A DNA stretch of 43,301 nucleotides from IMG/VR virus record IMGVR_UViG_3300025834_000002; one strand, written 5' to 3'. The DNA is from a virus. Below the pieces are notes generated by a model. It had not been told where the DNA came from and did no database searches. It saw only the letters and a program-made list of their open reading frames with translations. A program made the translations under genes and the position numbers. Of the stretch, positions 9,748 through 43,301 are shown piece by piece (the stretch's first letter is position 1; each line of letters opens with the position of its first letter).

Positions 9748-10032
9748 CTATTCAGCTTCAACTTTCAGCATGGAAAGTAAATAAGCTTTCTTCTCAGCTT
9801 CTGACTTACCATTAACTTCAGTCTTTTCAAGCTCAATTTTTCTAGCCTTACACAAAGCAAACAGTTCTTTTGCTGACATATCTTCAATAGCTACTTCTTC
9901 AGTTTCCTCTACTATCTCAGCTATGCCATTTGTTTCCCATCTAACTGCTACTTCTTCTGATACATCAACTACATCACCGATTTTTAAAGCTTTATCATGG
10001 TAAGTATTAACTTTCATTATAACCTGTTTCAT
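9748..10032 (-). CDS. Small acidic head-module protein with HeH/Rho_N-like motif
   Basis: Preferred start is MKQVIMKVN (GGAGG RBS 8 nt upstream). Motif MSAKELFALCKARKIELEK. Confidence 0.6.
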   Translation of the reverse strand: MKQVIMKVNTYHDKALKIGDVVDVSEEVAVRWETNGIAEIVEETEEVAIEDMSAKELFALCKARKIELEKTEVNGKSEAEKKAYLLSMLKVEAE

Positions 10033-10048
10033 ATGCTTATCCTCCAAA

Positions 10049-10093: not shown

Positions 10094-11068
10094 TTAAACC
10101 CCAGGAATTAATGCCGAAATTGGGTACCTAGTAGCTGAAGGGTTTAATTTATTAATTGGGTTTGGTACCTGCCAAGCCAATCTTATTACTGCTCTTAATG
10201 CTACCATATCTTGCTGAGCTAAGTTAAAGATGATGGCATTTGTAGCGTCAGTGATAACAGCCTGGTCAAGAATTTTGTAAGTAATATCTTGACGCATAGC
10301 ATATACAACTTGCTTGAAATCACCGCAGAACTGGAGCGCTGAAGTATCAATCATTCCACCATTTCTAGGGAAGAACATTGGTGCCCCATCAAGCTCATAT
10401 TGAGTGTTATCTTGCATAGAGGTTTTGAATAATGGTTGCCCAGTAGTATCTCTTAATCCTCTATACCTAGCTCTCATTTTCATAGCACCAATATGCCCTG
10501 TACACATAAATCCATCATTCTCTACAAGAGAAATAATTCCATTTGTGCCGAGCACATCATTGTAAAGGTCTGAACCAGTACCATTAGTAACAACATTGCC
10601 TGCTGCTACAGCTGCTGCTAGAATATTTAATGGCCACGAAGCAGGAGCATTAGTTCCAAACAGAACCGCCTGGTCAAAAGCTAAACCAAAAGCTTCCATT
10701 ATACGAGGCTTAATTTCACCCCAAATATCATAGTCTGCATCATCTAATACAGCCTCTGGTATTGGAATTATTACTGCAAGCTCTTCTGCATCAAAGTACT
10801 TGTTTGCCCATGACATATCAGAAGTCTGTTTTAATCCCGTATCACCATTTACAAAATAAGCAGTAGGCAATGTGCTGAGAACTGGTATTCTCTGCTGCTT
10901 TCTGCTCATGTTAGCTGCTTTAGTTGCAAGCTGCATCACTGCTGAGTTAACTGGAATACCTTGAATTATTTCTCTTGAAACATCTTCGGGAATTAATGCC
11001 CCCGCATCGGTTCTGTCAATCTGCCCATTATAAGGGAATAACTGCAAGTTCAATCTGTTTGCTTTCAT
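10094..11068 (-). CDS. Major capsid protein (HK97 fold) with NLQLF N-terminal leader
   Basis: ~324 aa after the scaffold gene. Preferred start is MKANRLNLQLF (GGAGG RBS 8 nt upstream; the track's GTG start at 11083 lies inside the SD). Typical capsid-family length and composition. Confidence 0.85.
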   Translation of the reverse strand: MKANRLNLQLFPYNGQIDRTDAGALIPEDVSREIIQGIPVNSAVMQLATKAANMSRKQQRIPVLSTLPTAYFVNGDTGLKQTSDMSWANKYFDAEELAVIIPIPEAVLDDADYDIWGEIKPRIMEAFGLAFDQAVLFGTNAPASWPLNILAAAVAAGNVVTNGTGSDLYNDVLGTNGIISLVENDGFMCTGHIGAMKMRARYRGLRDTTGQPLFKTSMQDNTQYELDGAPMFFPRNGGMIDTSALQFCGDFKQVVYAMRQDITYKILDQAVITDATNAIIFNLAQQDMVALRAVIRLAWQVPNPINKLNPSATRYPISALIPGV

Positions 11069-11099
11069 TTTTTCTACCTCCACATAATATATTTATTTA

Positions 11100-11762
11100 T
11101 TATACTCTTCCTGCTGCCCTACGAATTGCCGAATTCATATCTATAGCCGCTCCACCAGCTGCTCCTTTAGAGTGGTCAGTGCCACCCTTGCCACCTGTGC
11201 CAGCTGCACCAAATAGATATGGTTTAGCTTGCTTGATTCTTGCTATCTCTGCTGCAACACCAGCCACTTCACCACTCTTATTAATTTTCAAGCTTTCTAT
11301 ATCTATAAAAGCCAAGACATCTTTCACATCAATAGCGTCCTTAGCTTCTGCTATAATTGCGCTCTCAATCTTCAATTTGTCCATATCTTTTAACAGACCA
11401 GAATTTTGGTCAATAAGAGTTTGGTAAGTCTTTTGCAACTCTTCATTACCTTTGGCCCCAATTTGCAATGCCAATAGCTGCTTGTTCAAATCTGTTACCT
11501 GAGTTTTAAAACCATCTCTCTGATTAACTACTTCACCTAATCGAGTACTTGGTACGAATTCTGCTTTCTGCTTGTTATTGAGTAGTACATCATAACCAAG
11601 TTCACCTAGCTTAGCGCTAAGGTCAGTGAAACTCTTCTGTGATGCACCATCCTTAAAAGCTTCAACGTTAGCTGCTGCAACCTCTTCCATACTAGCGAAT
11701 AGCTGCAACATCAGAATCTTACCCATTAATACTTTGCTTACTTTTCCCATTTTAATTACCAT
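11100..11762 (-). CDS. Scaffolding protein (GP20-like) with MLQLF leader
   Basis: Coiled-coil-rich 220-aa ORF immediately upstream of the capsid gene. LMLQLF at 11697..11714. True start uncertain (11762, 11750 or 11726). Confidence 0.75.
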   Translation of the reverse strand: MVIKMGKVSKVLMGKILMLQLFASMEEVAAANVEAFKDGASQKSFTDLSAKLGELGYDVLLNNKQKAEFVPSTRLGEVVNQRDGFKTQVTDLNKQLLALQIGAKGNEELQKTYQTLIDQNSGLLKDMDKLKIESAIIAEAKDAIDVKDVLAFIDIESLKINKSGEVAGVAAEIARIKQAKPYLFGAAGTGGKGGTDHSKGAAGGAAIDMNSAIRRAAGRV

Positions 11763-12212: not shown

Positions 12213-12428
12213 TTATAGCTGCTTGCTTAATATCTCTCTTATCTGCATTTCTATCTTAGTTGTGAGCACCGCATCCTGAAAATACCCCATCTTTAAAAAT
12301 ATATCCGGAGAATTAAAAGGCGTTGCCACCTTAGCACTCATTTCTTTTATATTTACCAGATAGAAAGTAGAATCACGCTTTACTAAGAATTGGTAGTCAC
12401 CTCTCTGAGCTAATATTTTTATATTCAT
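12213..12428 (-). CDS. Hypothetical protein (71 aa)
   Basis: ORF with AGGAGGTGAAATA RBS; own promoter upstream. Confidence 0.6.
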   Translation of the reverse strand: MNIKILAQRGDYQFLVKRDSTFYLVNIKEMSAKVATPFNSPDIFLKMGYFQDAVLTTKIEMQIREILSKQL

Positions 12429-12453
12429 TATTTCACCTCCTATACATAATTTG

Positions 12454-12478
12454 TTTATATACTATCTTTATATACTAT
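12454..12478 (-). repeat. Direct 12-mer repeat (tttatatactat twice, 13-bp period, plus a third partial copy) in a transcribed leader
   Basis: Plus strand 12454..12465 and 12467..12478 are identical. Located between the -10 at 12494 and the RBS at ~12435. Confidence 0.7.
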
Positions 12479-12493
12479 ATACTACTGTTTGTT

Positions 12494-12522
12494 ATTATAT
12501 ACCAAAAGCTGCAATTTGTAAA
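12494..12522 (-). promoter_or_regulatory. Sigma-A type promoter
   Basis: Minus strand TTTACAaattgcagcttttggtaTATAAT (17-nt spacer). Confidence 0.75.
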
Positions 12523-12531
12523 CCTAAATTA

Positions 12532-15036
12532 TTAACTCAATATCTCTTGCATAGCACCACCTACAATCTCCCTTAGCCTTATACCCATTTTCTTTGCTAT
12601 CTCTTTTATTTTGGTGGTAGGTTTATGTCCGCTGGTAAATGTAATTTCATCTACATCGTCTAGCGTTAATCCCCCATGGTACTGCGCTTCCATATAGCTT
12701 ATACTCGAAGTATTGCAAACCATTCCGGGAGTAACCTCACTAACATTACTTATTTTATGCTGAGACTTTAACTCCTTCATAGTAAGGTCTTCTGCTGCAT
12801 ACCTTCTTACATTAACCACTTCGACCTTCTCTAAAGATGAAGCAACATAGGAACCACTCATACCTGGCCCCAAGCTATCATCCATAGTAAATGTAGTTCT
12901 CCTCCTTACATCACTCTTGAACTTTACAACTATATCTCCATAATGGTTCATACCCCTATTAGCTTTCATGTCTTTAAGAACATCCTTCTCACCTAAATAA
13001 CCATAGAATTCATATTGCGTAATATCTGTTGTTTTTGTATCTGTTCCAAATAAATTCTTGCTAGCTTCCTTCCTAGATGATTGGTTAAGTGAACCTTTAG
13101 AAGTATTGGTTTCAAACTGATTTTTAAACTTATTATCATCAAATATCTTAGTAAGTATCTTAGTATCGGGAACCCTTGAGTAAGTATTGGCATTATTAAC
13201 TACAGTTTGCAGTATCATTTTCAATTCATCTTTATTGCCAATATCCTTATACCTACTATCTTTCATAAATTCTTTTATTGTAAGGTCAAGATGTTTAAGA
13301 GTAGGTATCTGACTAATATCGAATGGCTTAGGCTCCCCCTTCTTTCTAAATTTCCACCCTAAGCTCTGCATTGGCTCTGCTGCTTTCAAAAAGGCTCCTG
13401 TATATTTACCAGTTACTACTATCTCTTCCAATGCACCTTTAGGAATCCAGAGCTTCCCACCAAATGTTCTAAAATCTTCCACCTCAAAAAACTCTTGTAC
13501 TTTAGTAACTAACAAACGATTAGGTGAGGAGAATTCTAAATCCTTACCTGCATCCATTGCCACCTTAGCTGCTTCTCTAAATGCATTAAACTTAGAATCG
13601 GCTAACTCATCATTATCGAGAAAACGAGCTTTCAACATACTCGGACTACTTGTATCAATAGCTGTTATACCAAATAGTTTATTAGTAGTCTTGCCCCTAT
13701 ATTCTATAAAAGAATTAGGAACCGCATCTAACTCCATGTCAATTAACACTTCTCTGATTTTAGCGTCTTTAAAATCATCAAGAACAGAGCCCGCTCGAAT
13801 ATCCTCAAACGTTTTAGCTTCTCCGGGAAATATTTTACCCTCAGGCTTTAAAACAGCGACGGGAGTTGGAGGCTTCTTATCAAACTTCTTCACACTCTTA
13901 ATTTTGTGCTTAGGCGGAGCTTCATATTTAAATGGCTTCACTATGCTATCAATTGCACCCCTTGAACTTATTCCTACTCTTGAACTTATATTTTCCCTTG
14001 CATACTTGCGCTTTAAGTTATATAACTCAACCAATTTCCTTTGTTCAGCTTGCCAATGGCGAATCTTAATGTTTGCTCTAGCTTTTGCAGCTGGGTCCAT
14101 TGCTACCGCTTCTACTCGCTTCCATTGGCGAATATGTCGTTCAATTGAGCGCTGTTTCTGAGTAGCTCTATAGAGAAGAGCATCATTAAAGCGCTCGTGC
14201 CTATGGTCAACTAGCTCGCTCTCAAGCTCTTCCATCTCTGGGAAATATGCTGTTACTGTATGCTTGCAATTTGGGTGAAATAAACCTTCTGCCCTTGCAT
14301 CCTGAAGCGCTGTATATTTACTATCTTTACCACTAATACTTAATACTTTTCCTTGCCACCTAGCACATATAGGACATGTTGTACCAATACTGCTCACCAT
14401 AACTAAATCATTACCCATATCTGCTTGCCTATCAATATGCCCTTGTAAAGCAGCATGTGCAGTGGTTGTTCGCACAGCCATCTCTAAATAGCTAGCCATC
14501 TCCCATTTCCTACCTGCTTTATCTACAAAGCCCGTAATTCCTCTTGCTGCTAACCTATTTAATGCATCTTGCGCTACTGCTTGCCTAGTCTCTACACCTA
14601 CTAAAGCGTTTAAGCTCACATCCGATACAATCTGCCTATACACATCCAAGCTATCTCTTAGTATCTGCACGCTTGTACCATCTATTAGGTTATTAGCTTC
14701 TAGCACTGCCCTCTGAACATGATATGGTATCTTATAAGTGAATACAGTGCTAGGAATACCATGGTCCAATTCAGCTGAGCGCAAACCTTTAGTATATGAG
14801 CTTAATATACCTTTTGACATTTTAGCTTTTGCTACTAGAGCTGCACTCTTCATTGTACTACCTAAATCTTTTCTAGTAGCTGTTAGCTGCTGGGCTCGTT
14901 CTTCATAATAACCTTGCTCAGTAATCCCACGCTTAATTCTGCTTGCTACCTTAGCTAACATCTTTGCTTCTGCATCTGAATAAAGTGCAAACACCTCATT
15001 AATTAACTTTTGGTTAAGGTCTGTACTTATTGCCAT
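12532..15036 (-). CDS. Head morphogenesis protein (SPP1 gp7 / Mu F family) fused to a long C-terminal extension ending in a DUF3626-like domain
   Basis: N-terminal third carries the MuF signature TTCPICARWQGKV...GLFHPNCKHT and follows the portal gene. aa ~600-834 carry QFETNTSKGSL, RRRTTFTMDDS and YMEAQYHGGLTLDDVDEITF. Confidence 0.8.
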   Translation of the reverse strand: MAISTDLNQKLINEVFALYSDAEAKMLAKVASRIKRGITEQGYYEERAQQLTATRKDLGSTMKSAALVAKAKMSKGILSSYTKGLRSAELDHGIPSTVFTYKIPYHVQRAVLEANNLIDGTSVQILRDSLDVYRQIVSDVSLNALVGVETRQAVAQDALNRLAARGITGFVDKAGRKWEMASYLEMAVRTTTAHAALQGHIDRQADMGNDLVMVSSIGTTCPICARWQGKVLSISGKDSKYTALQDARAEGLFHPNCKHTVTAYFPEMEELESELVDHRHERFNDALLYRATQKQRSIERHIRQWKRVEAVAMDPAAKARANIKIRHWQAEQRKLVELYNLKRKYARENISSRVGISSRGAIDSIVKPFKYEAPPKHKIKSVKKFDKKPPTPVAVLKPEGKIFPGEAKTFEDIRAGSVLDDFKDAKIREVLIDMELDAVPNSFIEYRGKTTNKLFGITAIDTSSPSMLKARFLDNDELADSKFNAFREAAKVAMDAGKDLEFSSPNRLLVTKVQEFFEVEDFRTFGGKLWIPKGALEEIVVTGKYTGAFLKAAEPMQSLGWKFRKKGEPKPFDISQIPTLKHLDLTIKEFMKDSRYKDIGNKDELKMILQTVVNNANTYSRVPDTKILTKIFDDNKFKNQFETNTSKGSLNQSSRKEASKNLFGTDTKTTDITQYEFYGYLGEKDVLKDMKANRGMNHYGDIVVKFKSDVRRRTTFTMDDSLGPGMSGSYVASSLEKVEVVNVRRYAAEDLTMKELKSQHKISNVSEVTPGMVCNTSSISYMEAQYHGGLTLDDVDEITFTSGHKPTTKIKEIAKKMGIRLREIVGGAMQEILS

Positions 15037-16622
15037 TATTTTTCACCTACACTCTTTGTTCCTTTGTTTGCTTTTGATTTGGCTTCGGCATCTTTCTTTT
15101 CCTCATCTAACTCAAAAGTATCTAAATTCATACCATCCGGATTGCTCATTTCACCAATACCATTTTCTTTATTAATTGCTTCTGCCTCTTTCTTTATCTG
15201 CTCCTCATCCCATTCAGGGTGTATCAATCTTACCTTTGTTTCTGTGCTTGCTGCAATTGCATCACTAATCATTTTTACAGCAGAGGAAACCTCACTTAAT
15301 GAATTAGTTAAACCATCACTAAAGCTTATATTCACTTCACTATCAAGCTCTACCTTACCTTTAAGATTTGTTTTATATATTACCAGCATTAAATATATTA
15401 TTTGCTTTAAAGCTGAACCCCAATAGTTCTGCTTCTTATTTCTTGTAGCTATTGATTTACGCTCTCTTATGTTTAACGCTGTTCCGCTCTCAGCACTGCC
15501 TTGAATATTTAAACCAAAGCTCTGAGGACTATATCCAGCTGAGGTAACTATACGCTCTAAGAAATTAAGCGCTGACTTCTCATATTGGTCTGCTTTTATT
15601 TCAAATTGCTGCAATGTAACTCTACTACCCGAGCCTTCAGATATAGGGTCTATGTCCATCTGTACATAAATCATTTCATCATAGTTATAATGTTTTTTAC
15701 CATCTTTCTTAGCTAAATATGATTCCGGCACTATTACCCTTGGTTGCGCTAGCACTATGTTTCTCACCCAATTGCTGTATATTTCATCTAAACTATCCAT
15801 CATGCCTTCTATTCCACTATAATCTGAGCGCCCTATATAACTATTACGATTTAACCTATTAGGAAGCATATTGGGCACATACACCGCTAGCAGCTCATTC
15901 AAAGGCGTAACAACCTCTGCAATTAACTCTTTTGTTTCATCTATTGCACCTAAATCTACTACATACCCTAAATTGCTTCCAGTACCAAAGTATAAAGTAT
16001 TAATAATCTTACCAAACTCATACCTTTCTAGCAGCCTATAAACCTTATCTGATTCATTACTACTTGCTTTATATTCTGTCCAGAAAGTAACCGCACATAA
16101 CACCCCAAACTTAAATTCTGGGATTGCCCTATCAGCTTGCATTACTACAGGCAGAGGAAACTCACTAAGTTCATCATCCCAACAAATCTTTATATATACT
16201 CCACCCATTGCACTTGCGCTTTCAGCTGCTTCAATTATCTTTCTAAAGAAGTTTACCGAGCTGTCCATTAGCATCTTATCGAGTACCTCCTGCGTTCCCT
16301 TATATCTCGATATGCCTTCTTTTTGCGCTTGCGCTATTCTAATTATTGGGCTCTCAGAAAAGAGTAAATTAGCGCTGGTTTCGGCAATATCTCCAGCTAC
16401 ATTAACATGTGCAAATATTTCACCTTGATTCTTTAATTGTCTGCCCCAGAAGTTTTCATTGTGAAGCGGATATGATAGTCCTAGGTTATTTACATTTGAA
16501 TACAAACTATAATAATTTGCTAATATTTCTGCATCACCTGTATACCATGCACTATGCTCTGACATCTTCCACTCTAGTATTCCCATTGGGGGCCACTGCA
16601 TCTTTTCTTTTATTGCTGCCAT
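15036..16622 (-). CDS. Portal protein (SPP1 gp6-like)
   Basis: 528 aa, between terminase/Prp and MuF. N-terminus WKMSEHSAWYTGDAEILANYY is typical of SPP1-type portals. Acidic C-terminus. Confidence 0.85.
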   Translation of the reverse strand: MAAIKEKMQWPPMGILEWKMSEHSAWYTGDAEILANYYSLYSNVNNLGLSYPLHNENFWGRQLKNQGEIFAHVNVAGDIAETSANLLFSESPIIRIAQAQKEGISRYKGTQEVLDKMLMDSSVNFFRKIIEAAESASAMGGVYIKICWDDELSEFPLPVVMQADRAIPEFKFGVLCAVTFWTEYKASSNESDKVYRLLERYEFGKIINTLYFGTGSNLGYVVDLGAIDETKELIAEVVTPLNELLAVYVPNMLPNRLNRNSYIGRSDYSGIEGMMDSLDEIYSNWVRNIVLAQPRVIVPESYLAKKDGKKHYNYDEMIYVQMDIDPISEGSGSRVTLQQFEIKADQYEKSALNFLERIVTSAGYSPQSFGLNIQGSAESGTALNIRERKSIATRNKKQNYWGSALKQIIYLMLVIYKTNLKGKVELDSEVNISFSDGLTNSLSEVSSAVKMISDAIAASTETKVRLIHPEWDEEQIKKEAEAINKENGIGEMSNPDGMNLDTFELDEEKKDAEAKSKANKGTKSVGEK

Positions 16623-16960
16623 TATAATTCTACCTCCTCTATCATAATATTATTTGGGTACTCTACTGCTAACATATTTAAACTTATTTCACATGCCTTA
16701 AGTATTGCATATCTTATTACTTGCTCAAATGTTGGTAAGTTTAAGTCCCTCACCTCTACATAAGAATTACCTACTTCCATTATTCCTTTAACATCTCTTG
16801 CTCCTATAAGCTCAATCAAGCTATAATACGCGTTCTGTATAGTAATGCTCACTGCACAGCATACTAAATCTGGACATCCCTTTGCTGCATAATCAGCATG
16901 TCCTATTACATCTACTCTCTGAATAATATCCTTCATCTTTACTATCTTAATTTTAATCAC
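16622..16960 (-). CDS. prp: Prp-family cysteine protease (ribosomal-processing protease homologue)
   Basis: IGHADYAAKGCPDLVCCAVS matches the Prp His/Cys dyad region (GHA...D.VCAAVS). ~112 aa, GTG start after a GAAGGGAG RBS. Confidence 0.75.
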   Translation of the reverse strand: MIKIKIVKMKDIIQRVDVIGHADYAAKGCPDLVCCAVSITIQNAYYSLIELIGARDVKGIMEVGNSYVEVRDLNLPTFEQVIRYAILKACEISLNMLAVEYPNNIMIEEVEL

Positions 16961-17532: not shown

Positions 17533-18840
17533 TTATGCTGCTTTCTGCTTATGCACTATTATTCTCTGCCACGTTATTCTAGTTCCATTAATTACATACC
17601 TTAATCCATCCAATGCATGGTCAAATTGTTTTATAGGAATATCTTCACCACGCTTCTGAGCTTTTGGGTCCCAGCTATATGCACCAAACTCTTTTATAGT
17701 ATTTTCACAACAACTAAGAATACGCAACATATCATTATCTATTATAGAACTAATTAACTCTATACCTCTAAGAACTTCATTATTCGCCTGCTTTAATCCT
17801 TTAACGCCTTCTTCAAATAGTTGTAGCATAAAGCCTTTAGCAGAGGGGTCAATAAATATATCATCATACCTTACTGGCATTCCTTCTACACCACACTTAA
17901 TTAACCATAACTTAAAGTCTTTTGAATACTTGCTAGGAGACTTCTGTTCTTGAGAGCTTCTACCTTCATGGTAATACTCACTTAATATATAAAGTTTATC
18001 ATCACTACCTAAACCTATTAAAAGAAATACAGTTGCATTACTCTGTCCATAATCTACACCTATCCATTTCTTTCTTATTACTACATTCAATGGCACTATA
18101 CGAACTATCATATGATTTCTAAACATACTATAAATAATACCTTCTGCTACTACCCATAAACCGAGTATAAACCTATCATAAAATACTCCACCGAACATCC
18201 TCTTATATCTTGCTTTTACCTTCTCAGATAGTGATGGATTATCGTCTAATTCAAAATGTATTCTAATAGCATTCTTACTTAATAGTTGGTCAATCCATTC
18301 TAATTTAAACCAATGAAAAGGTCCATCTGGATTGCAATTAAACCACAACTTAGCACCTTCTACTGAACATCTTGCTACTGCTTGATTAACAAAAGACTGA
18401 GGCATCAATACAACCTCATCAAAAAAGAACCCAGCAGAAGTAAAACCTTGCACTAAGTCTTGTGACCTTTCATCCTTACCACCAAATATAAAGAATAAAT
18501 TACTAACACCTTTCCTACTAATCTCTAAGTAATTCTCACTACGATGGTCAAACACTTTATAACCACGTAACCGAAGTAACAACTTTAATACTAATATAAC
18601 ATTTCTTCTAAATGAACCTATTGTCTTTCCAGCCATTCCGAATTGTTGGTTAGAAAAGGTAAACATCGACCATAGAACAAACGAGAGGGACATTATTATG
18701 GTTTTCCCCGCCCTAACGCTCCCATCACAAATAATAGCGTCCTTATTACAATACTTACTTTCTGGTAACCACCAAGTTAATACCTGCTTCTGCTTTAAAC
18801 TAAATGCTTTATATACAAATGATTTAATTTGATTAACCAT
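17533..18840 (-). CDS. terL: Terminase large subunit
   Basis: 435 aa. Walker A CDGSVRAGKT, Walker B-like FFFDEV, C-terminal nuclease-like region. Downstream of TerS. Confidence 0.9.
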   Translation of the reverse strand: MVNQIKSFVYKAFSLKQKQVLTWWLPESKYCNKDAIICDGSVRAGKTIIMSLSFVLWSMFTFSNQQFGMAGKTIGSFRRNVILVLKLLLRLRGYKVFDHRSENYLEISRKGVSNLFFIFGGKDERSQDLVQGFTSAGFFFDEVVLMPQSFVNQAVARCSVEGAKLWFNCNPDGPFHWFKLEWIDQLLSKNAIRIHFELDDNPSLSEKVKARYKRMFGGVFYDRFILGLWVVAEGIIYSMFRNHMIVRIVPLNVVIRKKWIGVDYGQSNATVFLLIGLGSDDKLYILSEYYHEGRSSQEQKSPSKYSKDFKLWLIKCGVEGMPVRYDDIFIDPSAKGFMLQLFEEGVKGLKQANNEVLRGIELISSIIDNDMLRILSCCENTIKEFGAYSWDPKAQKRGEDIPIKQFDHALDGLRYVINGTRITWQRIIVHKQKAA

Positions 18841-18843
18841 ATA

Positions 18844-19110
18844 CTATACACCTCTACGCTTAGGCCACTTGTTTATATAATATACCTTAAATCCTCTATT
18901 CTGATACTTAACTACTGCAGCTCTCAGAACCTCATTACTATCAGATATTTCTCTCTTCATTTCTATTATTCCATCTTTCTCTACTGCATATATTGCATAC
19001 TGTTTTTCTTCTTTATATTTATCCCTTGCAGTCTCTAAGCAAGCTACGGTTAATGGTTCTGCTATCTCATAAACATTACCATTTACTATTAGTTTTTTAG
19101 TCAATAACAT
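18844..19110 (-). CDS. Hypothetical protein between TerS and TerL
   Basis: 88-aa ORF, tightly packed. Confidence 0.5.
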   Translation of the reverse strand: MLLTKKLIVNGNVYEIAEPLTVACLETARDKYKEEKQYAIYAVEKDGIIEMKREISDSNEVLRAAVVKYQNRGFKVYYINKWPKRRGV

Positions 19111-19787
19111 TATTCTTCCTCCCCATCTTCCACCTCAGCTAATTCCCATACTTCCTTTACTGAACCTTTAAGCGCTTCAATGAATCCATCATCTTGTTCC
19201 TCATCCTCAAACTGCCCAGCTTTCTTTTTTTCAATCTCTACTCTTTGTCTCATAAGCTCCAGTTTCTGCTCTTCTATCTTTTGACGCCAATCTCTAGGCA
19301 TTACATCAAAGTACCGCTCTAGTCTATCGAAGGCGACTAACTTATCATACAACTCTATTGTAACACCATCTTTACCTTGTCTTACTGTTTTTATTAGCTG
19401 TCCGTCAATATCTGAACCATTATATAACTTAATTCTGTTATTCTCAATTTTAACAAAATCCGTCATATCACTAAATGCTATACGCATATATTTCTCCACA
19501 ATATCCATTGCGGTAATATTGCAGCGTTTACTAACCTTTAACTTTAACCAGCAAATATATTTATTTACTTTCGGTTTGTTTCTGAGCTTATATCCTACTA
19601 AATTCGCTGTAGTGCCTTTGTACCCAGCCTTTACTGCTGACATCTTAACATTGTAACTTCCCATAAAATACTCACAGAAGAGAATCTCCTTATCACTAAG
19701 CCCTTCCGAAGCCTCATCCCTCCCCATATCCAGCAGCTCTTCCTCTGACTCTTGGGTATATATCTTTCTTTTAACTGTGGGCAACAA
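19110..19787 (-). CDS. terS: Terminase small subunit (Terminase_2-like)
   Basis: LSDKEILFCEYFMGSYNVKMSAVKAGYKGTTANLVGYKLRNKPKV matches the TerS HTH signature. TTG start after AGGAGGTG. Confidence 0.85.
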   Translation of the reverse strand: MLPTVKRKIYTQESEEELLDMGRDEASEGLSDKEILFCEYFMGSYNVKMSAVKAGYKGTTANLVGYKLRNKPKVNKYICWLKLKVSKRCNITAMDIVEKYMRIAFSDMTDFVKIENNRIKLYNGSDIDGQLIKTVRQGKDGVTIELYDKLVAFDRLERYFDVMPRDWRQKIEEQKLELMRQRVEIEKKKAGQFEDEEQDDGFIEALKGSVKEVWELAEVEDGEEE

Positions 19788-21501: not shown

Positions 21502-22050
21502 CTATACGTCCCAATCCTCATCATCATCTTTTTTCTTTTTCTTCTTTGGCTCTTCTTTTTTACCTTTTTTAGGTTTTTCCTCTTCCTCTTCTTCCTCTTC
21601 TTCGTCCTCTTCCTCTTCTTCTACTTTTTTAGACTTCTTAACGGGTTTCTTTGGCTCTTCTTTCTTACCCTTCTTAGGTTTTTCCTCTTCCTCATCATCT
21701 TCATCGTCGTCCTCTTCATCTTTAGACTTCTTTGAAGGCTTTTTATCTGCTTTCTTTTCTACTGCTTCTTTCTTGCCTTTCTTAGGAGCTTCCTCTTCCT
21801 CATCTTCATCTTCTGAATCTTCTGCTTCCGCTTTTGCTTCACCCTTCAACATGATTTCCAGCTTACGCATGGTCATCCATTCAGGCATATTAGTAAGCAT
21901 AGCTTCCATACCTGATTCAGTAGTTACTGCGAGTGCAGATAAAGGAAACCTTCTTGTTACATCAGCCACATCTGCCATACTTACCTTTTTCCCTTTTACA
22001 TAATCTCTTACTAATTTTACTGCTGCTGCTGCTGTCCAATTCGTAGCCAT
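21502..22050 (-). CDS. Protein with a ~70-aa N-terminal domain and a ~110-aa alternating poly-acidic/poly-basic tail ending DDDEDWDV
   Basis: Translation read directly. The unit EEEE(K/A)PKKGKKE(EPKKP) is repeated three times. Has its own promoter, long leader and terminator. Confidence 0.7.
   Translation of the reverse strand: MATNWTAAAAVKLVRDYVKGKKVSMADVADVTRRFPLSALAVTTESGMEAMLTNMPEWMTMRKLEIMLKGEAKAEAEDSEDEDEEEEAPKKGKKEAVEKKADKKPSKKSKDEEDDDEDDEEEEKPKKGKKEEPKKPVKKSKKVEEEEEDEEEEEEEEEKPKKGKKEEPKKKKKKDDDEDWDV
21505..21843 (-). repeat. Low-complexity GAA/AAG-rich coding repeats (three imperfect ~45-bp units)
   Basis: Plus-strand units near 21541, 21647 and 21770 share ctttggctcttc...ttaggtttttcctcttcctc. 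Confidence 0.7.
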
Positions 22051-37570: not shown

Positions 37571-37929
37571 TTCTCTACCTCCAATTTCTCCACATTCATC
37601 TGAATTTTAGTAATTACTGAAGCAAATAACTCTTCGGCATCTATGCCACTAAATATTGCTAAATTAAGAACTGTTATAAATACATCCGCTAACTCTTCCA
37701 TTTTCTCGGCTAAATCATATGTTGAATTCCTATGAGTTTTCCACCGCTTATCTGCTTTTAATAGCTCTCCTAGCTCCTCTACTATTGCACACATATGATA
37801 CTTGAATAATTCTGGATTATCTTTTGTTGCTAGCTTTCCAACCACTATTTGCTGATATGCTCTCTGAGCTTCATATAAGGACTTTAAGGACTCCCTTTCA
37901 GGAGCCCCCATATCTTTATTACCATTCAT
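37567..37929 (-). CDS. All-alpha NTP pyrophosphohydrolase (MazG / dimeric dUTPase-like)
   Basis: AIVEELGELLKADKRWK and MEELADVF acidic metal-binding pairs. Preferred start MNGNKDM (GAGGA RBS), overlapping the SSB stop. Confidence 0.65.
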   Translation of the reverse strand: MNGNKDMGAPERESLKSLYEAQRAYQQIVVGKLATKDNPELFKYHMCAIVEELGELLKADKRWKTHRNSTYDLAEKMEELADVFITVLNLAIFSGIDAEELFASVITKIQMNVEKLEVEK

Positions 37930-38803
37930 TTTCGTCGTCCTCTTCATCATCCTCGTCTGACTCGTCTGCTGCTTCTAGCTTCTTAATGTAATACTTCTCC
38001 GGCTTCTTAGGCTCCACCTTAATCTTGCGCTTTTTACATAATGCATAGAGTTCTTTTGGAGTGAGGTCCTCATACTCATTTTCTTCTTCCTCATCCTCCT
38101 CATCCTCTTCCTCTTCTTCCTCTACACGCTTCTTAGGTTTAGATTTGGACTTAGACTTTTTAGGAGCTTCCTCCTCTTCTTCTTCATCATCTTCGTCCTC
38201 ATCTTCATCATACTTAGCCTTAGACTTAGCTTTTACTTTCTTGCTTTTTTTATTTCTTCTAGGAGTTTCGTCCTCATCCTCATCTTCATCCGAATCCTCA
38301 GGATATGCTTTATCTAATATAGAAAGTACCTTGCTTTCACTAAGTGCCTTTGCTGCTTTATTCTTAAATTTAACCTTATCCATCGGAACAACCGAGTAGG
38401 TGGTATTAGTCTGAGAACCATTCTTTGTGATTATATAATCTCTATCAGTCATGGACTCATAAGTCTCACACATTCCAATAAGAGATGGTATAGGTGAACA
38501 ATTGTTTACCGCTCCCATTAGAAGTTTAGTCTCCTTAGCTTCATAATCCCATACAGACCAACAATATAAATCTCTATGTCTCAAGCTTTCATCATCGTGG
38601 TGCTTGCAATCTCTATCAAATATCTCTTGGCAAGGAACATTAATTCCTGCTTCAAAACTATCGTGAAACTGTATTTTTAAACCATCATCAATTTCCTGCA
38701 AGAATCTTACTCTAACCTTTACACCTGACTTGAAGTACATTATCTTACCTTTGTTTGCGCCACTGCGCTTAACATCATTTTTAATATCACTCATTAATCC
38801 CAT
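37919..38803 (-). CDS. ssDNA-binding protein (T4 gp32-like core) with charged linker, HeH motif and acidic tail ending in Trp
   Basis: VRVRFLQE..FHDSF..C..C.HH..YCWSVW resembles the gp32 AVIRFLPS..H..C..C..C..YWANI layout. Lies between primase and the nucleotide genes. C-terminus DEDDEEDDENEW. Confidence 0.55.
   Translation of the reverse strand: MGLMSDIKNDVKRSGANKGKIMYFKSGVKVRVRFLQEIDDGLKIQFHDSFEAGINVPCQEIFDRDCKHHDDESLRHRDLYCWSVWDYEAKETKLLMGAVNNCSPIPSLIGMCETYESMTDRDYIITKNGSQTNTTYSVVPMDKVKFKNKAAKALSESKVLSILDKAYPEDSDEDEDEDETPRRNKKSKKVKAKSKAKYDEDEDEDDEEEEEEAPKKSKSKSKPKKRVEEEEEEDEEDEEEENEYEDLTPKELYALCKKRKIKVEPKKPEKYYIKKLEAADESDEDDEEDDENEW
38069..38302 (-). repeat. Low-complexity GAA/GAT/AAG coding tract (poly-D/E and poly-K blocks)
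   Basis: Read directly; the plus strand is a long pyrimidine-rich tcttcctc tract. Confidence 0.7.
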
Positions 38804-42849: not shown

Positions 42850-43301
42850 TTAATTAACTATAAGCGGTATTGATTGTACTACACAAAATTGTAAGTCCTG
42901 TGCAGAAACAGGGTATCCACCTACGTTGGTTTTTACGTGAGGCACAATCTTGTGTCCTGCTGCAACATATATATCCTCAGCGTAAGTTATATATGACGCA
43001 CTAAGAGCTCTTTCCGTTCCTATATATTGTCCTGTAGTTTCATTGTATAAACAAGCATAGCCACTACTATTTGCGTAGCCTTTGAATTTTATCCTATATG
43101 TTCCAGAGTAATTAGGAATTATTCCTTGAGCTGAGGTTGCTTTTACATAGATAGTAGAATTAACACTAGAACCACTATTAACAGCAGCACTAGGGAGCGG
43201 AATATCCCCTGGTATATAGGTGGGAGCAATATTAGTTCCTACTAGACCAAATATATTCTTACCACTTACAATATTACCTGCTTGTAAGTCAGGTTGTGCA
43301 C
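42850..43301 (-). CDS. Tail fiber protein, C-terminal part (same gene as 1..1079; non-redundant part is 42850..43174)
   Basis: The frame continues across the 127-bp overlap and ends ...DLQFCVVQSIPLIVN with TAA at 42850..42852. The joined unique ORF is 1404 nt (467 aa). Confidence 0.75.
   Translation of the reverse strand, partial: AQPDLQAGNIVSGKNIFGLVGTNIAPTYIPGDIPLPSAAVNSGSSVNSTIYVKATSAQGIIPNYSGTYRIKFKGYANSSGYACLYNETTGQYIGTERALSASYITYAEDIYVAAGHKIVPHVKTNVGGYPVSAQDLQFCVVQSIPLIVN
43175..43301. repeat. Second copy of the 127-bp terminal duplication
   Basis: Identical to 1..127. Confidence 0.95.

Follow-up and report, generated by a model that had tools for sequence, protein, structure and literature searches.

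A probable SopF-type ADP-ribosyltransferase on a MuF-type minor capsid protein, with a linked small partner gene, in an uncultured phage genome

The virus record IMGVR_UViG_3300025834_000002 of IMG/VR is a DNA stretch of 43,301 nucleotides, here called the window, which refers to the whole stretch that was analysed. On its minus strand we found a gene for an 834-aa fusion protein, composed of an N-terminal MuF-type minor capsid protein and a C-terminal DUF3626 domain. This second domain is very probably an ADP-ribosyltransferase (ART) of the SopF type, as judged by homology, fold and active-site conservation. A short open reading frame (ORF) of 71 aa follows the fusion gene. The explanation we favour, and consider fairly likely as a whole, is that of a MuF-packaged and delivered SopF-type mono-ADP-ribosyltransferase, accompanied by a cognate partner. 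Domain identities, fold, NAD-contact residues, head-module context, recurrence of the fusion and linkage of the partner were all established by computation. Fusions of MuF with ARTs are already known. What is new is the SopF-type ART clade, its presence in an apparently virulent phage and the partner family, which is previously undescribed.

Results

A C-terminal domain of the SopF type

In the full protein, the Pfam model PF12294 (DUF3626) matches aa 629-822 with 30.3 bits, over the gathering score of 27. The C-terminal 235 aa alone score higher, with 35.2 bits (E=8.9e-9). An earlier note on this DNA had proposed a DUF3626 domain at 12535-13240, and this assignment is borne out. The span corresponds to aa 600-834, and all three motifs quoted for it are found in the protein: QFETNTSKGSL (aa 640-650), RRRTTFTMDDS (aa 711-721) and YMEAQYHGGLTLDDVDEITF (aa 781-800). 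In PHROGs, aa 602-819 are covered by phrog_8314, annotated as “unknown function”.

The same note described the biochemical activity of DUF3626 as unknown, a statement that is outdated. By full-text search, DUF3626 is named in two papers only, one of which defines it as residues 178-338 of SopF, a Salmonella type III secretion system 1 effector (PMC6682159). SopF is an NAD+-dependent ADP-ribosyltransferase, with an “I-Y-E” triad akin to diphtheria-toxin-type enzymes (PMC10333799). It is activated by ARF GTPases and targets Gln124 of the V-ATPase subunit ATP6V0C, with structures 7DN8 and 7DN9 available (PMC10333799).

Searching the PDB with the C-terminus as a single sequence (phmmer) returned nothing relevant. 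A profile built from five window-domain sequences matches both SopF structures, 7DN8 and 7DN9 (E=0.002), so the link to SopF in the PDB needed a profile, as the single-sequence search had missed it. The profile alignment pairs RPIY-AAL, AYGK and YIEAHIHGD of SopF with rpvY-GYl, qYGa and YvEAQyHGG of the window-domain family. In the window protein itself, RPIY(224)AAL pairs with EFY(678)GYL and YIE(325)AHIHG with YME(783)AQYHGG.

The identities of SopF Y224, Y240 and E325 were confirmed from the mutagenesis primers printed in PMC11937434; structure 7DN9 has Asp instead of Glu at the E325 position. In SopF, E325A (N-ribose contact) and either Y224A or Y240A (nicotinamide contacts) largely block ADP-ribosylation (PMC11937434), and Y240A is the standard catalytically dead mutant. 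The equivalent positions Y678, Y699 and E783 are conserved in 99%, 99% and 100% of 147 domain copies. Also conserved across these copies are E642, S646, G648, R655, R713, T715, D720, S721, Q785, H787 and G788. Besides the three NAD-contact residues, 15 or more further near-invariant positions are intact in the window domain.

The window domain differs from the family consensus at S659, Y675 and E676. These residues are common to a coherent subclade that includes its nearest relatives, and we therefore take them as lineage-specific change and not as decay. The residue preceding Y224 is Ile in SopF and F677 in the window; the “I” of the triad is unnumbered in PMC10333799.

An AlphaFold2 (AF2) model of aa 562-834, based on a 36-sequence alignment, has a predicted local distance difference test score (pLDDT) of 88.5 and a predicted template-modelling score of 0.87. 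Foldseek against the PDB places SopF (7DN8_A) first, with E=3.4e-7, probability 1.0 and a template-modelling score of 0.53-0.56. The next ranks are CteC, DarT and OspC3/CopC, all of them non-canonical ADP-ribosyltransferases. The earlier note had suggested looking for a catalytic pocket around the E-x-x-x-H-G motif; the Glu of this motif (E783) is the equivalent of SopF E325. From its residues, the domain is probably catalytically competent.

The MuF part and the middle region

PF06152 (Phage_min_cap2) matches aa 9-337 with E=1.1e-57. It is a model of the MuF superfamily, for which the models named are PF06152 and PF04233. A MuF signature had been noted before in the first ~270 aa; it is present, and its extent is larger than this. 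PHROGs assigns the region to phrog_581, minor head protein (E=7.5e-79), and AF2 models it as largely helical. When the whole fusion protein was searched by tblastn, the MuF part alone was matched, with 30-36% identity to actinophage proteins annotated as MuF-like minor capsid proteins. By megablast, neither the fusion gene nor 25 kb of the window matched any of 50,697 phage genomes. The identical fusion protein is present on four contigs of ~43.3 kb, with differing start points.

As for the ~330 aa between the two domains, given as an unassigned linker in the earlier note, they are indeed unmatched. They are not one piece, and consist of two units, with ~125 predicted-disordered residues followed by an orphan module of ~95 residues. 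In the full-length model, pLDDT is below 50 over aa 344-417 and 428-469 and about 50-77 over aa ~470-565, with the confident ART domain starting near aa 570. The middle region (aa 341-561) has no homologue in 5.8 billion proteins, in the PDB or among 150 family representatives, and no Pfam or PHROGs match was found for it. The nearest relatives (loci L005 and L006) share the MuF (49% identity) and ART (35-42%) domains; the middle is not shared, and their spacers have ~60 and ~135 aa. We read this region as a hypervariable tether plus an orphan insert. Release of the cargo by the Prp-like protease of the phage was considered and is unsupported: the motif LxLQLF occurs in the scaffold and capsid proteins, with none in the fusion protein.

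Spread of the domain

Searched with the domain profile, 1.84 billion proteins yield 5,713 cluster representatives at E<=1e-3, of which 999 reach E<=1e-30; the DUF3626 match is therefore far beyond chance. Among the 150 best representatives, the domain is present in 2-5 copies in 70. Some of the family representatives (among P0005-P0036) are giant proteins, 1,000-5,800 aa long, with 2-5 tandem SopF-like copies, and one of them, P0006, starts with Phage_Mu_F.

Considering the 68 representatives of 400-1,100 aa, PF12294 is found in 65, PF04233 (Phage_Mu_F) in 23 and PF06152 in 11, with a MuF-family domain carried by 34. There were zero matches to Pfam ART-PolyVal among the 68. A relative of the domain is encoded by 325 viral contigs. 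In most of the 79 viral loci that we fetched it is located at the extreme C-terminus of ORFs of 450-1,000 aa. The Pfam matches, the position after the portal gene and this recurrent MuF-DUF3626 architecture agree with the earlier suggestion of a MuF head protein with a DUF3626 cargo and possible ejected effector, where packaging and ejection would follow by analogy.

Among sequenced phages, the domain occurs in Streptococcus phage MissE2 (40.7% identity), in gp2 of mycobacteriophage L5 and in phages related to it, and in Bacillus phage SP-15. Nodularia phages also carry it, annotated as “DUF3626 domain-containing protein”. In phage TP901-1, aa 343-562 of ORF33 (MCP1) are the same domain (E=2.7e-42), with intact catalytic residues. 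This corresponds to the ~28-kDa C-terminal extension of MCP1, which is absent from the 94%-similar Tuc2009 counterpart and was given no function (Stockdale et al. 2015, PMC4493119). Full-size MCP1 was detected in TP901-1 phage preparations and is required for infectious particles (PMC4493119). These data are the best available experimental support for packaging.

Mycobacterium phage Tierra gp9 carries the domain and is annotated as “capsid maturation protease and ADP-ribosyltransferase”. A second ART in gp9 was rejected, with Pfam showing VG15 and DUF3626 only, and the annotation probably refers to the DUF3626 domain. At the “partner” position of Tierra, gp10 (L002 5227-5412, 61 aa) overlaps the end of the VG15-DUF3626 gene and matches ribosome modulation factor (PF04957, E=2.5e-11), an unexpected domain at this place.

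The viral structure library (Foldseek BFVD) adds Bacillus phage CP-51 and several giant-virus proteins. The same fold was seen there in uncharacterised proteins of the giant viruses Bodo saltans virus, Yasminevirus, Tupanvirus and mimivirus Kroon, and of an iridovirus and a baculovirus. The family may therefore include members in eukaryotic viruses.

The DUF3626 domain and the partner proteins are both missing from NCBIfam and PADLOC. Our literature search found no mention of SopF-like proteins, SopF homologs or a SopF family, and nothing joining SopF with bacteriophage, ADP-ribosyltransferase and capsid.

A small partner gene downstream

A conserved partner gene, missed by the earlier note, is located 103 nt downstream of the fusion gene. 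This 71-aa ORF has a strong Shine-Dalgarno (SD) sequence, GGAGGTG, 6 nt upstream of its ATG, and was called as a gene on two independent contigs. In the gap between the two genes (12440-12530, minus strand), a promoter-like site is followed by three TAGTATATA direct repeats just before the ribosome-binding site of the partner. A second similar promoter-like site was found at 12114-12086. The promoter-like site is a motif match only, and totals in the AT-rich region are not above shuffles. Together with the repeats, such sites could allow the partner to be expressed separately.

In the 79 viral loci, the ART gene is usually followed by a small ORF (60-145 aa), often with a stop-codon overlap of 4-38 nt. 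The window ORF and 27-29 of the 80 downstream ORFs, which lie on unrelated viral contigs, form one family, termed family A, with E-values down to 1e-28 by BLAST and iterative hidden Markov model (HMM) searches. Controls with shuffled queries gave 0 matches. Its members have in common the motif RG near the N-terminus and (A/K)xGYW near the C-terminus. A further 16-17 downstream ORFs belong to the unrelated family B (MissE2 type). Counting non-redundant viral loci (n=49), 16 have an A partner and 7 a B partner. We tried families A and B as one superfamily, which is unsupported. Small profiles give a hhalign probability of 33% and the L005 partner matches both HMMs; larger profiles give 4.5%.

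The family A profile finds 327 proteins of 66-152 aa in the 5.8-billion-protein collection, none named and none with a Pfam domain. Eight members were sampled from long contigs, picked regardless of ART, and seven of them are directly downstream of a DUF3626 gene. In these seven, the domain is carried by a head-module protein of 855 aa, a polyvalent protein of ~2,000 aa with RNase_T, two fusions with Phage_Mu_F, proteins of 375 and 566 aa, and a standalone 265-aa protein on a Solirubrobacterales chromosome. This placement in seven of eight, whatever the carrier, suggests a cognate immunity or regulatory partner. The divergence of ART and partner is also correlated (Pearson 0.68, Mantel p~5e-4). 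Several alternative small partners, and a cassette that appears to move between carriers, form a toxin-immunity-like pattern, which is what such pairs look like. For the 71-aa protein, a role as the immunity protein of the ART domain is tentatively proposed from its gene linkage, at slightly less than an even chance.

Two other arrangements were observed. In the Solirubrobacterales metagenome-assembled genome (L088 2034-4243, CAVTRE010000004.1), the gene for the standalone DUF3626 protein of 265 aa shares 4 nt with that of its family A partner of 80 aa. With three integrase genes and a divergent SIR2 gene as neighbours, the pair resembles a toxin-antitoxin (TA)-like or defence-island module. 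In viral contigs L035-L039, a standalone 345-aa ART overlaps by 4 nt with a 266-aa protein made of the family A domain plus extra sequence, a longer form of the partner.

Genome, head module and lifestyle

The window ends are identical, with an exact 127-nt overlap between positions 1-127 and 43175-43301, which makes it a complete circular assembly of 43,174 bp. A minus-strand open frame of ~487 aa runs across the circle junction and was missed by the ORF lister. The fusion gene lies within a standard siphovirus head module, in the order TerS-TerL-Prp-portal-MuF-scaffold-capsid, all on the minus strand (Table 1).

Table 1. Location of the fusion gene, its parts and neighbouring features in the window
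Feature	Position	Strand	Evidence
Fusion gene: MuF-type minor capsid protein + SopF-like ART domain, 834 aa	12532..15036	-	ORF listing, Pfam PF06152 + PF12294
MuF / Phage_min_cap2 domain, aa 1-340, presumed portal-binding packaging module	14017..15036	-	PF06152, phrog_581
Predicted disordered Lys/Pro-rich spacer, aa 344-469	13630..14007	-	pLDDT <50, no homologues
Orphan alpha/beta module, low model confidence, aa 470-565	13342..13629	-	pLDDT, predicted helices + strands
SopF-like (DUF3626) ADP-ribosyltransferase domain, aa 571-834 (264 residues)	12535..13326	-	PF12294, SopF profile match, AF2, Foldseek
Y678 codon, equivalent of SopF Y224, nicotinamide contact	13003..13005	-	HMM alignment, codon checked
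Y699 codon, equivalent of SopF Y240, nicotinamide contact	12940..12942	-	HMM alignment, codon checked
E783 codon, equivalent of SopF E325, N-ribose contact, ART-fold catalytic Glu	12688..12690	-	HMM alignment
Promoter-like site TTTACA-17-TATAAT, 11/12, between fusion stop codon and partner ORF	12494..12522	-	consensus scan
71-aa partner ORF, family A, putative immunity protein or regulator	12213..12428	-	gene calls, SD, homology, linkage
TerS	19110-19787	-	head module
TerL	17533-18840	-	head module
Prp-like cysteine protease PF04327, between TerL and portal genes	16622-16960	-	Pfam
SPP1-type portal gene, abuts fusion gene upstream, expected MuF docking partner	15036..16622	-	PF05133, E=5e-19
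Scaffold	11100-11762	-	head module
Major capsid protein	10094-11083	-	head module

Elsewhere the genome has genes for a DnaE-type polymerase, a primase, a RecA-like protein, ThyX, RNase H, resolvases and a Cas4-like exonuclease, and its replication module is self-sufficient. PHROGs, applied to the large unassigned ORFs, and seed searches of the window gave no integrase or recombinase, and no tRNA genes are present in the window. A scan of 185,579 reference genomes gave neither a related prophage nor a close relative. We are dealing with an uncultured phage that is probably virulent.

L27/Prp-type cleavage motifs are present near the N-terminus of both the scaffold (aa 17-22, LMLQLF/ASMEE) and the major capsid protein (aa 11-16, LNLQLF/PYNG). 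Prp-mediated head maturation is known in staphylococcal phage 80alpha, and the motifs suggest that it may occur in the window phage too. The nearest relatives are Streptococcus phage MissE2 and Peptococcia, Peptoniphilus and Clostridiales genomes. Together, the Prp-type motifs and these relatives point to a Bacillota host.

Lastly, two window proteins have extreme Glu/Asp/Lys low-complexity tails, and the motif KEL(F/Y)ALCK(A/K)RKI is common to a 99-aa ORF of the head module and a 294-aa ORF of the replication module. The ORFs concerned are 21502-22050, 37919-38803 and 9748-10047, all on the minus strand. The motif may be HeH/SAP-like and bind DNA.

Discussion

A proposed mechanism

The observations can be assembled in four steps. 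First, the MuF domain would dock the protein to the portal inside the procapsid, with a few copies packaged, as is known for SPP1 gp7 and inferred for TP901-1 MCP1. Second, the long, flexible and hypervariable spacer would tether the ART enzyme. Third, at infection, the protein would exit the capsid with the DNA and the ART would use host NAD+ to ADP-ribosylate a host macromolecule, leaving the cell biased toward phage development, or with a defence disabled. Fourth, the 71-aa gene product would bind the enzyme as its cognate partner; as most likely an inhibitor or immunity protein, it would silence the enzyme in the producing cell until packaging. ART and partner would then be a mobile two-gene cassette, found on MuF domains, on giant polyvalent proteins or standalone in chromosomes.

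These steps are not equally firm. Delivery into the host with the DNA, which is modelled on T4 Alt and on the MuF-toxin hypothesis, has in our view just over an even chance. We infer, also by analogy, that the target is modified by NAD+-dependent ADP-ribosylation of a host component. A role in host takeover or anti-defence at the start of infection is favoured over lysogen competition because the genome has no lysogeny genes.

Some results weigh against this explanation. Overall phage relatedness or shared ancestry could explain the Mantel correlation between ART and partner. A partner of family A or B is present in only 23 of the 49 non-redundant viral loci, and after only 7 of 57 ART ORFs in reference genomes, which makes the linkage an asymmetric one. 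The MCP2 found downstream in TP901-1 shows no relation to family A, and an MCP2 is present in Tuc2009 too, where the ART extension is missing (PMC4493119). An immunity protein is also less obviously needed by a lytic phage. As for the enzyme, SopF requires a eukaryotic ARF GTPase (PMC10333799); in bacteria another cofactor, or none, may be needed.

Alternative explanations

The protein could instead be a classical MuF polymorphic toxin (Jamet et al. 2017), in which the ART would kill or inhibit competitor bacteria without the immunity gene, to the benefit of lysogens, and the 71-aa ORF would protect the lysogen. The architecture of MuF, C-terminal enzyme and small ORF below 150 aa directly downstream fits the definition, and ARTs make up 14% of the MuF toxins described (PMC5576092). 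The promoter-like site would moreover belong to the partner ORF itself. However, MuF toxins were found only in temperate phages and prophages (Jamet et al. 2017, PMC5576092), whereas the window is a complete circle of 43,174 bp without a detected integrase or recombinase, with self-sufficient replication and zero related prophages in the reference genomes. We consider this explanation unlikely.

An enzyme with the ART fold and a non-protein substrate has a similarly low chance. It would ADP-ribosylate DNA or RNA, like DarT, or be a plain NADase. DarT is indeed among the second-tier Foldseek matches, and immunity proteins of ~70-90 aa are typical of NADase toxins. MuF proteins are also known to touch packaged DNA (SPP1 gp7, cited in PMC4493119). 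On the other hand SopF, which modifies a protein Gln, is the closest match by far (E=3e-7 vs about 1e-3 to 1e-2 for DarT), and an NADase that depletes NAD+ at the start of infection would harm the phage too.

We give the same small weight to a domain that acts in the producing cell or in the capsid, either by modifying phage or host proteins late in infection or as a structural part in DNA retention or ejection. The 71-aa protein would then be an assembly chaperone or activator. An assembly helper fits the stop mutant of TP901-1 MCP2, which gives scarce but viable particles (PMC4493119), and an activator fits the need of SopF for an activating protein cofactor (PMC10333799); many family members also have no partner. 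Against this, domain and partner also occur outside the capsid context, as the standalone pair L088 and in polyvalent proteins (L086), and Tuc2009 MCP1 works without the extension (PMC4493119), which makes the extension dispensable for head assembly.

Finally, a relic without catalytic activity, retained as a spacer or for binding, is very improbable. The Pfam score of the domain is barely over the threshold (30.3 vs 27) and several conserved sites deviate, but it has kept the NAD-contact residues and 15 or more near-invariant positions, its subclade shares the deviating residues and the model is highly confident.

Implications

Returning to the packaged SopF-type ART with its partner, a broader reading can be proposed, with somewhat less than even confidence. 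SopF-type ART and family A would form a widespread two-gene cassette of toxin and immunity, or of enzyme and regulator. Phages would load it in capsids via MuF, phages and conjugative elements would embed it in polyvalent proteins, and bacteria would keep it as a standalone TA-like or defence-island pair. SopF would be a eukaryote-adapted offshoot of a mainly bacterium-targeting effector family, delivered by phages and mobile elements. If so, the family would have a bacterial target, perhaps with glutamine-directed chemistry, and in an apparently virulent phage the cassette would be a T4 Alt-like weapon for host takeover or anti-defence, not an interbacterial toxin. By numbers, the SopF family appears to be made up mainly of domains from phages and mobile elements, a point relevant to the origin of SopF.

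Among polymorphic toxins, the effectors carried by MuF proteins are the class least tested so far. Annotations such as “DUF” or “minor capsid protein”, covering the 5,713 cluster representatives and 325 viral contigs, gain a concrete and testable chemistry. The 28-kDa extension of TP901-1 MCP1 is explained as this domain, in a phage for which genetic tools exist. The 327 unannotated small proteins become a candidate inhibitor family and a handle for toxicity and rescue work. Furthermore, the cassette in a genome without lysogeny genes challenges the view of MuF toxins as limited to temperate phages.

Comparison with known systems

The published surveys of MuF toxins and of polyvalent proteins do not list the DUF3626 domain; DUF3626/PF12294 is absent from Jamet et al. 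2017 (PMC5576092), supplements included. MuF polymorphic toxins, among them the EFV toxin of E. faecalis V583 (MuF plus ART) and the VIP2-like MuF-ART fusions of Microbacterium phages, are like the window protein in their N-terminal MuF, C-terminal enzyme and small downstream ORF. Their genes also come after that of the portal, and they too are proposed to be delivered along with the DNA. They differ in having ARTs of C3/VIP2 type, and in being limited to temperate phages. Of the features used by Jamet et al., the window has the MuF domain with a toxin-type enzymatic domain and the downstream ORF below 150 aa, and apparently not the temperate origin.

The ART of polyvalent proteins, Tox-ART-HYD2 (Iyer et al. 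2017), is similar in that it occurs in single or multiple copies in giant proteins of phages and conjugative elements, and in MuF fusions; DUF3626, likewise, has 1-5 copies per protein, and the largest of these proteins reach 5,800 aa. The active site of Tox-ART-HYD2 is H-Y-D (Iyer et al. 2017), whereas the window family has Tyr-Tyr-Glu with an invariant Glu, and so carries Glu, not Asp, at the last position. Tox-ART-HYE1 is a gammaproteobacterial RHS toxin (Zhang et al. 2012).

T4 Alt resembles the window protein as a capsid-packaged ART that enters with the DNA to reprogram the host, a route that would apply to the window protein by analogy. Unlike it, Alt has a different packaging signal, which is not MuF, and no homology was detected between them. 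Alt belongs to an unrelated ART clade, of the R-S-E type.

SopF is of the same Pfam family as the window domain, is its best structural match and shares the Tyr-Tyr-Glu NAD-contact residues. It is also an enzyme for which a dedicated machine provides injection into the target cell, as may be the case for the window protein. In contrast, SopF is a standalone effector of 374 aa with an N-terminal helical region, secreted by type III secretion into eukaryotic cells. Identity between the two domains is only about 15%, and no partner gene is known for SopF. Its ARF GTPases and its target ATP6V0C are eukaryotic factors absent from bacteria, and activation by ARF is probably not a family-wide feature.

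Lastly, TP901-1 has a similar arrangement, with MCP1 composed of a MuF-like and a SopF-like domain and followed by a 75-aa ORF (MCP2, ORF34). As a member of family A or B, ORF34 was rejected, its relation to the 71-aa protein of the window being undetectable. TP901-1 also differs from the window phage in being temperate and in the short spacer between its two domains.

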